From IMG/VR virus record IMGVR_UViG_2778261056_000003: 4,457 nucleotides of DNA. One strand, given 5' to 3'. This DNA is from a virus (taxonomy: Duplodnaviria; Heunggongvirae; Uroviricota; Caudoviricetes). Under the pieces are notes generated by a model that saw only the letters and a program-made list of their open reading frames with translations, was not told the origin of the DNA and made no database searches. Positions within the stretch are counted from its first letter, which is position 1. Each line of letters starts with the position of its first letter. The position numbers and the translations under genes were made by a program. Of this stretch, positions 3,603-3,963 are shown in pieces.

Positions 3603-3643
3603 CGGATGGTTCATTGTTTTGGCAGCAAACCACTTATTTGAGG
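3603..3643 (+). repeat. direct repeat copy 1 (duplicated leader / translation-initiation region)
   Basis: The 21-nt core GCAGCAAACCACTTATTTGAG (3622-3642) is identical to 3943-3963. Imperfect similarity extends upstream (CGGAT...TTTT) and downstream to GATA-N-ATG. Confidence 0.8.
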
Positions 3644-3778
3644 TGATATATGGAAGAACAAGCAAACAAGATTCTCGTAGAGCTACCGCAAGCCACGCAG
3701 TGAAATGGGTGTGACTTGTGTTGGTCGCCAGAAGCAACGCGGAAAATCAATTCCAGCTTATTACGATTGAGGTGAGCC

Positions 3779-3916
3779 ATGCTCAAGAAAGTCAAACGCC
3801 GACTTTACAAAGAAGGTAGATATTCATGCCAGTTGCCAAAATGCGACACAACAAAATGGAGTGTCGATGATTGGTGTAACTGGATAGATAGATACGGAAC
3901 TTGGTGGGATAAATAA
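3779..3916 (+). CDS. possible small protein, 45 aa, Cys/Trp-rich (not in the ORF track)
   Basis: ATG at 3779 preceded by SD GAGGTGA (3768-3774). Translation MLKKVKRRLYKEGRYSCQLPKCDTTKWSVDDWCNWIDRYGTWWDK, ending at TAA 3914-3916. Same strand as the early-left operon. It falls below the apparent length cutoff of the track. Confidence 0.35.
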   Translation: MLKKVKRRLYKEGRYSCQLPKCDTTKWSVDDWCNWIDRYGTWWDK

Positions 3917-3929
3917 CAGGTAACTTAAG

Positions 3930-3963
3930 CGGATTTATTTTCGCAGCAAACCACTTATTTGAG
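3930..3963 (+). repeat. direct repeat copy 2 (duplicated leader / translation-initiation region)
   Basis: Core GCAGCAAACCACTTATTTGAG at 3943-3963 is identical to 3622-3642. It lies immediately upstream of the ATG at 3973. Confidence 0.8.

Follow-up and report, generated by a model that had tools for sequence, protein, structure and literature searches.

A 21-nt sequence that is repeated in the early-left region of a lambdoid phage originates from the 3′ end of an N antiterminator gene together with the Shine-Dalgarno (SD) sequence of the gene that follows. It is placed at gene boundaries with flanks that assort nearly freely around it, the debris of earlier joins lies between the two copies, and a collapsed form is present in other genomes. 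The repeat is probably a linker at a mosaic junction, made from the tail of the N gene and combining two roles, as a segment of homology and as a ribosome-binding leader. Patterns in the phage population suggest that the linker would itself be the site of crossover.

The window, by which we mean the whole stretch of 4,457 nt that was analyzed, is a lambdoid immunity and early-left region with the direction of pL on the + strand (Table 1). The core GCAGCAAACCACTTATTTGAG is found on the + strand at 3622-3642 and 3943-3963, with a spacing of 321 nt, and these are its only places in the window on either strand when up to three mismatches are allowed. Two matches to the core were found in 0 of 200 dinucleotide shuffles of the window. 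The paired core is a non-random feature, and a chance match is ruled out. Without gaps the repeat extends to 29 nt with 93% identity (3614-3642 and 3935-3963), and in a gapped alignment the likeness reaches CGGAT on the 5′ side (3603-3607 and 3930-3934) and GAG..TGATAnATG on the 3′ side, some 40 nt in total. An earlier note on this DNA had described a perfect core occurring twice 321 bp apart, imperfect similarity on both sides, a 17-codon open reading frame (ORF) after copy 1 and an 80-aa gene after copy 2, and all of this is borne out. At copy 1 the SD GAGGTGA is separated by 4 nt from an ATG, and at copy 2 there is a weaker GAGAG. Both copies are thus predicted translation-initiation regions, and the ORFs 3′ of the leaders belong to the conserved families DUF7446 and DUF5484.

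Table 1. Features of the window and their positions.
Feature	Position	Strand	Description
cII	20-319	-	
cro	458-691	-	
cI	805-1509		
Two accessory ORFs	1579-2372		
Working N antiterminator gene	2977-3360	+	127 aa; BP-4795/mEp506 type, ending …KQLTAR-stop; Pfam PF25694 (N_peptide), E=2e-15
74/75-aa gene	3364-3588	+	Function unassigned, no Pfam match; left module of copy 1 (left-flank class L0/L7); also in mEp506
Linker copy 1	3603-3649	+	Degenerate 5′ part, exact core at 3622-3642, SD GAGGTGA and spacer
TGA of copy 1	3639-3641	+	End of 21-type N tail GSKPLI-stop, non-coding here
17-codon stub ORF	3650-3703	+	Codons 1-11 match the start of an Sf6-gene-34-type membrane-protein gene; the rest runs out of frame into the N remnant
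Putative illegitimate joint, stub to N remnant	3681-3691	+	Microhomology A(G)CTAC(C)GCAA (CTACYGCAA), seen when the window is compared with the R8 gene and with N7 N
Dead N 3′ end, N7/Sf6 type	3684-3770	+	28 codons and stop, YRKPRSEMGVTCVGRQKQRGKSIPAYYD-stop
DUF5484 gene	3779-3916	+	45 aa; homologue of Sf6 gene 36; left module of copy 2 (class L2); Pfam PF17583, E=3e-12
Linker copy 2	3930-3972	+	Degenerate 5′ part, exact core at 3943-3963, weaker SD-like GAGAG and spacer
DUF7446 gene	3973-4215	+	80 aa; right-flank class R7; Pfam PF24233, E=2e-28

The genes flanking copy 2 have relatives elsewhere. The DUF5484 protein is identical in Sf6, the junction between its gene and the core is also present in Sf6 and N7, and homologues of the 80-aa gene are annotated as DUF7446 in E. 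coli genomes. Two minus-strand ORFs that run over the copies (3531-3737 and 3792-3974, both encoding SNKWFAAK) were rejected as mechanical, since they cross unrelated modules and no minus-strand gene is annotated at this place in relatives. Elsewhere in the window there is a 19-nt inverted repeat, 95% complementary and containing GCGCTGACAAAGCGC, at 406-424 (- strand) and 2696-2714 (+ strand). These elements, 3′ of cro and 5′ of N, are presumably the boxB-type hairpins of nutR and nutL.

The accessory ORFs between cI and pL overlap (1579-2019, 146 aa; 2016-2372, 118 aa with a hydrophobic C-terminus) and occupy the position of rexAB. Neither has a Pfam match, and a strong terminator-like hairpin follows the pair at 2383-2404. 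The same pair fills this slot in the E. coli genome ABWA45, while mEp506 has HicABC and BP-4795 a HigB-like toxin module there. Given what these two phages carry in this slot, the pair may be a lysogen-expressed accessory or defense module.

The nature of the core is indicated by phage 21, in which the N ORF ends within it (…VGRQKIKLGSKPLI-stop, encoded by GGC AGC AAA CCA CTT ATT TGA). On this comparison the core corresponds to the last six codons and TGA of a phage-21-type N gene (…GSKPLI-stop), plus the SD of the next gene. The stop codon overlaps the SD of the first post-N gene (TTTGAGGTGA, then 4 nt and ATG), and in phage 21 the overlap reads TTTGAGGTGATATATG. The N protein of λ ends in …GRQKIKGKSIPLI-stop and those of Sf6 and N7 in …GRQKQRGKSIPAYYD-stop, and from comparison of these endings the tail can be recognized as a conserved part of the λ/21/Sf6/N7 family of N proteins.

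The working N of the window is of a different type. It is identical to N of mEp506 and almost identical to that of BP-4795, and its C-terminus, of the BP-4795/mEp506/HK620 type, lacks the tail conserved in N of λ, 21 and Sf6. In BP-4795 (contig L002, 6770-6832) an out-of-frame 21-type tail, MTCVGRQKMKLGSKPLI-stop, is present directly after the stop codon of N. Together the phage 21 N end, the other-type N of the window and the out-of-frame tail in BP-4795 argue that the core is an N 3′ tail joined to the next ribosome-binding site, and that both copies in the window are non-coding. Many lambdoid phages keep the block as non-coding DNA after a different N or another small gene. The layout in BP-4795 looks as if the reading frame of N had been cut off on entry into an old tail.

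The core recurs widely. With a 41-nt query it was found in 268 phage records at 269 places, the carriers being lambdoid phages of E. coli, Shigella, Salmonella and Cronobacter and Stx phages. A scan of IMG/VR for the exact core gave at least 120 contigs, with one copy per contig among the matches listed. Throughout, it follows the end of N, or of a small post-N gene, and precedes the ATG of the next gene. The earlier note held that confinement of the repeat to this one pair, with neither further copies in relatives nor an association with gene boundaries, would speak against its significance, and the search gave clearly the opposite result.

Around the core we distinguish eight classes of left flank, including the 21-type N tail, a ghost of BP-type N, the end of the 75-aa gene and the end of the DUF5484 gene, and 11-12 classes of right flank, including orf28/ral, the BP-4795 ORF18 type, DUF7446 and the gene-34 type. 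Among 120 unique contexts after dereplication, 33 of 96 possible pairings occur, and independence is not rejected by a permutation test of flank association (p=0.06). Left and right flanks thus assort almost independently. Identity between classes ends at the core edge or runs into the N tail on the 5′ side, and on the 3′ side it ends at TTTGAG, or at the ATG in classes sharing GTGAKATATG. In the window itself, homology to BP-4795 ends at 3652, to mEp506 at 3661 and to Sf6 at 3963. The recurrence of the core, the near-independence of its flanks and the breaks in homology at the two copies support its reading as a mosaic junction, or boundary sequence, of lambdoid phages. Among the possibilities raised previously, the one with the most support is a linker through which early-left genes recombine as modules, with the same gene boundary occupied in hundreds of relatives.

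The conservation of the core should be read with some care. The first IMG/VR sample was chosen for the exact core, which inflates its apparent conservation; when samples are unbiased, substitutions are present in about 10-35% of the cores. Among coding contexts 21 of 24 have the exact core, as against 28 of 42 non-coding ones. The difference is only a trend (p=0.08), and 19 further contexts, λ included, are too diverged for the core to be scored.

The DNA between the two copies contains debris. The 17-codon ORF had been thought loosely to resemble the 5′ end of the 80-aa gene. Instead it begins as a gene of the Sf6 gene-34 type (MEEQANKILVEL…) and then enters foreign sequence. Full-length genes of this type (121-149 aa) are present in eight loci, with their first 38 nt identical to the stub. 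The suggestion of a duplicated gene 5′ region is therefore correct in that a truncated 5′ stub follows copy 1; it fails in that the source of the stub is not the 80-aa gene but one for a gene-34-type membrane protein, and in that the core comes from the 3′ end of N.

The N remnant that follows the stub is identical in 28 of 28 residues to the C-terminus of phage N7 N, and its DNA aligns to Sf6. Its TGA overlaps the SD GAGGTGA of the DUF5484 gene. The N tail is then followed by the DUF5484 gene and the core, the same order as in Sf6 and N7, and here by DUF7446. Within the remnant, 3705-3770 also forms an ATG-initiated ORF of 21 codons, MGVTCVGRQKQRGKSIPAYYD, with no obvious SD; if it were translated, its predicted product would be a free C-terminal peptide of N.

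The joint between stub and N tail is found in four other contexts, in E. coli ABWA45 and in the IMG/VR contigs L159, L160 and L161, with differing surroundings. A scan of the GTDB species representatives gave no match to this chimeric joint. In L159 (12376-12519) there are two exact cores just 123 nt apart, the first followed by the gene-34 stub and then by a 21-type N tail, which runs into the second core and ends there. This looks like a primary tandem duplication, from which the 321-nt arrangement of the window could be derived.

Leaders made from N tails are not confined to the core. We scanned for an N tail plus SD of the 21 type (CCACTTATTTGAGGTGA) and of the Sf6 type (GCTTATTACGATTGAGGTGA), and found 162 matches in the pL sense against 1 antisense, in 131 dereplicated loci. 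At least two such leaders are present in 30 of the 131 loci, each located a few bases 5′ of an ATG. In Sf6 (contig L003, 4594-4616) and N7 (contig L004, 4596-4618) gene 34 has as its leader a decayed N tail of the Sf6/N7 type (GCTTATTACaATcaAGGTGA), so that within one genome an N-tail ghost can precede each of several consecutive post-N genes. In λ (L157, NC_001416) the sequence 5′ of orf28 at approximately 34358-34395, tttactaccgcaatCCACTaTTTaAGGTGATATATG, consists of N codons (IYYRK) fused to a decayed core, and orf28 with this leader is located beyond sieB, a gene on the opposite strand. The λ-type orf28 leader is common to more than 32 IMG/VR contigs. In a sample anchored on orf28, and hence unbiased for the core, all 125 of 125 leaders are N tails or ghosts of N tails.

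These leaders raise the possibility that the block is a selected expression adaptor. It would provide a good initiation leader, with an unstructured A/C-rich stretch, a U-rich tract, a strong SD and the N stop codon inside the SD for coupling; genes would be placed by illegitimate recombination, the block kept by selection for immediate-early expression, and homologous recombination would be incidental. The SD GAGGTGA 7 nt before the ATG is indeed common to at least eight unrelated downstream genes, both types of N tail end in TGAGGTGA with the stop within the SD, and the block is still present in contexts where it has ceased to encode N. The leaders are also less stable than shuffled sequences (z=+0.3 to +0.8), so that the SD should be accessible. 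However, the upstream 12-14 nt of the core (the GCAGCAAACCAC part) have no known role in translation and drift when they are non-coding, as in the counts of exact, altered and unrecognizable cores given above, and the SD of copy 2 in the window is weakened. Nor does an adaptor alone explain the near-free assortment of flanks. As a sufficient account we judge it unlikely, but it is compatible with the linker and does not exclude it.

The overlap of stop codon and SD recalls translational coupling in operons, since the TGA of N forms part of the SD used by the following gene (TTTGAGGTGA and GATTGAGGTGA). In the window, by contrast, no long ORF ends at either copy, and coupling to N is therefore lost. 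Only the SD function can remain.

Might the repeat instead be a sequence-specific regulatory site that co-regulates the two downstream genes, such as a translational operator, a site for an RNA-binding protein, sRNA or RNase, a terminator or a promoter? As such a site would be, the core is widely conserved and the same in both copies, but N coding and the SD account for that conservation. RNA folding of 44-80-nt segments covering both copies gave no structure beyond that of shuffled controls, and the copies share no stable or common fold. A search of Rfam with 3500-4000 gave no match at E up to 1. We found no intrinsic terminator (tL1-like, with a GC-rich hairpin and U run) at either core, and a promoter scan gave no promoter-like site at the cores. 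In all, four terminator-like sites were found where 2.0±1.5 are expected. Just 5′ of copy 1, where the 75-aa gene ends, 3585-3614 can form a weak terminator-like hairpin that is AT-rich (four G-C pairs among 12) and has TGTTTTGG behind it; it is restricted to the left-flank class of copy 1, and its significance is doubtful. Moreover, the core is single in nearly all genomes, so that repetition is not part of the design. Taken together, a regulatory site of this kind is very unlikely. The earlier suggestion of a translational operator or RNA-binding site survives only in that the 3′ part of the repeat is an SD region; there is neither structure, Rfam match nor sign of a dedicated regulator. Two candidate RNAs were also discarded. 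An Rfam match to STnc310 at 797-852 is at the level of chance, and the prophage Pas sRNAs map to the late region rather than here.

The array-like succession of linker, gene, linker, gene, with cassettes that assort freely, could also suggest a site-specific cassette system in which an attC-like site or a homing-endonuclease target actively moves small genes. Integron attC arrays are similar in that short gene cassettes are divided by a repeated element and take their expression context from an upstream promoter. They differ in having a hairpin-forming attC, a dedicated integrase and precise excision. We found no inverted repeat or hairpin character at the core, no integrase in the cassette region, and no recombinase or endonuclease among the cassette genes, and the joints beside the copies consist of N-gene debris and microhomology, which are the marks of general and illegitimate recombination. 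Such a system is the least probable of the explanations considered. The repeat is neither a regulatory RNA nor a novel system.

The reading as a linker can be set against the forms that exist in bacterial genomes. The two-copy arrangement is present in one complete E. coli genome, ABWA45. Using as query a synthetic sequence with the 321-bp unit removed, we found the collapsed single-copy form end to end in 17 complete E. coli genomes with 98-99.5% identity. The window and ABWA45 are 99.7% identical over 2638-4239 and differ in the cro-cI segment, and thus the array has outlived at least one further exchange. The ABWA45 prophage encodes a protein of the Rad52/Rad22 family. The collapsed forms that we inspected (L128 and L129) have one base different in the core, and hence collapsed forms need not descend from the array in the window.

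A possible history of the locus would begin with a single microhomology-mediated illegitimate event, in which codon ~11 of a gene-34-type gene became linked to codon -28 of N. In its simplest form this would be a 123-bp tandem duplication that took in the N tail, the core and the start of the gene. Homologous exchanges within the N tail and core would later have swapped the flanks, and the outcome would be the stack of 75-aa gene, linker, debris, DUF5484 gene, linker and DUF7446 gene. On this account it is the stacking of two post-N cassettes that has given the window its two copies. The block would act as a ready-made ribosome-binding leader for any small gene placed downstream, and as 21-31 nt of near-perfect homology at a gene boundary, longer where the N tail is also common to both partners. 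Single-strand-annealing recombinases of the phage, or RecA of the host, could then exchange the upstream N/immunity module and the downstream accessory cassettes with damage to neither.

Recombination between the two copies would remove the 321-bp unit and generate a single-copy form like that in other genomes. Efficient pairing requires a minimum of 23-27 bp with Redβ and of 31-34 bp with RecA (PMC3945230). The exact core of the window, at 21 nt, is just below the minimum for Redβ, and deletion between the copies may therefore be rare. The two-copy arrangement persists in two prophages with different immunity regions. The same overall pattern could also arise if joins were illegitimate everywhere and only those that keep the leader survived.

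A more ambitious proposal is that the post-N slot is a dedicated docking site for immediate-early accessory genes, possibly with anti-defense functions. The N tail and SD would be a portable adaptor selected for both early translation and homology, with Rad52-like recombinases adding, stacking and removing cassettes of N tail plus gene in an integrase-free array, and the ghosts at λ orf28, Sf6 gene 34 and in the window would be its footprints. We offer this tentatively and consider it rather doubtful.

The linker takes its place within a familiar picture of these phages, the modular theory reportedly formulated for lambdoid phages by Susskind and Botstein in 1978. In λimm21-type hybrids, which provide the classical homology boundaries of immunity substitutions, the imm21 segment has its left limit where N ends. 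The N proteins of λ, 21, N7 and Sf6 correspondingly share a C-terminal tail and differ at their N-termini; in the window, by contrast, the tail survives as debris and as duplicated leaders of accessory genes and is not just a heteroduplex boundary.

Short conserved boundary sequences have been proposed as foci of recombination in lambdoid phages (Clark et al. 2001, on HK620, as cited in PMC3029335 and PMC2327257). As described in GenBank annotations and the citing papers, these bsq or linker sequences, seven in the study of Clark et al., are similarly short, conserved among otherwise dissimilar genomes and placed at module or gene boundaries with different modules on either side. In the Sf6 record bsq4 and bsq5 are annotated on either side of the region, and the site between the N 3′ end and the first post-N gene carries no such annotation; the HK620 record has neither a copy of the core nor a bsq annotation at that site. 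The present linker differs in that its origin is clear, as the coding tail of N plus an SD that is often left as a non-coding ghost. The idea of boundary sequences is already established, and the N-tail linker adds a well-resolved example of ordinary phage mosaicism. Exchange where homology is short or diverged has an enzymatic basis in relaxed, homeologous recombination by Rad52-like phage recombinases (Martinsohn 2008, PMC2327257; De Paepe 2014, PMC3945230). The diverged shoulders in those studies are hundreds of bp in length, whereas the common block here measures no more than 21-31 nt except where the phages also have the N tail in common.

The locus is an unusually legible example of how lambdoid mosaicism arises. 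The coding tail of an essential regulator, kept similar where it encodes N, would also serve as the seam for swaps of accessory genes, and an illegitimate join of stub and dead N tail is visible beside the homologous exchanges that would later have spread it. In annotating such regions, both the 17-codon ORF and the N-like fragment are best regarded as debris, and it would be wrong to label the conserved leader a regulatory RNA. The post-N slot, occupied by ral, orf28, DUF5484, DUF7446, gene 34 and others, is a place in which to seek early-expressed accessory functions.
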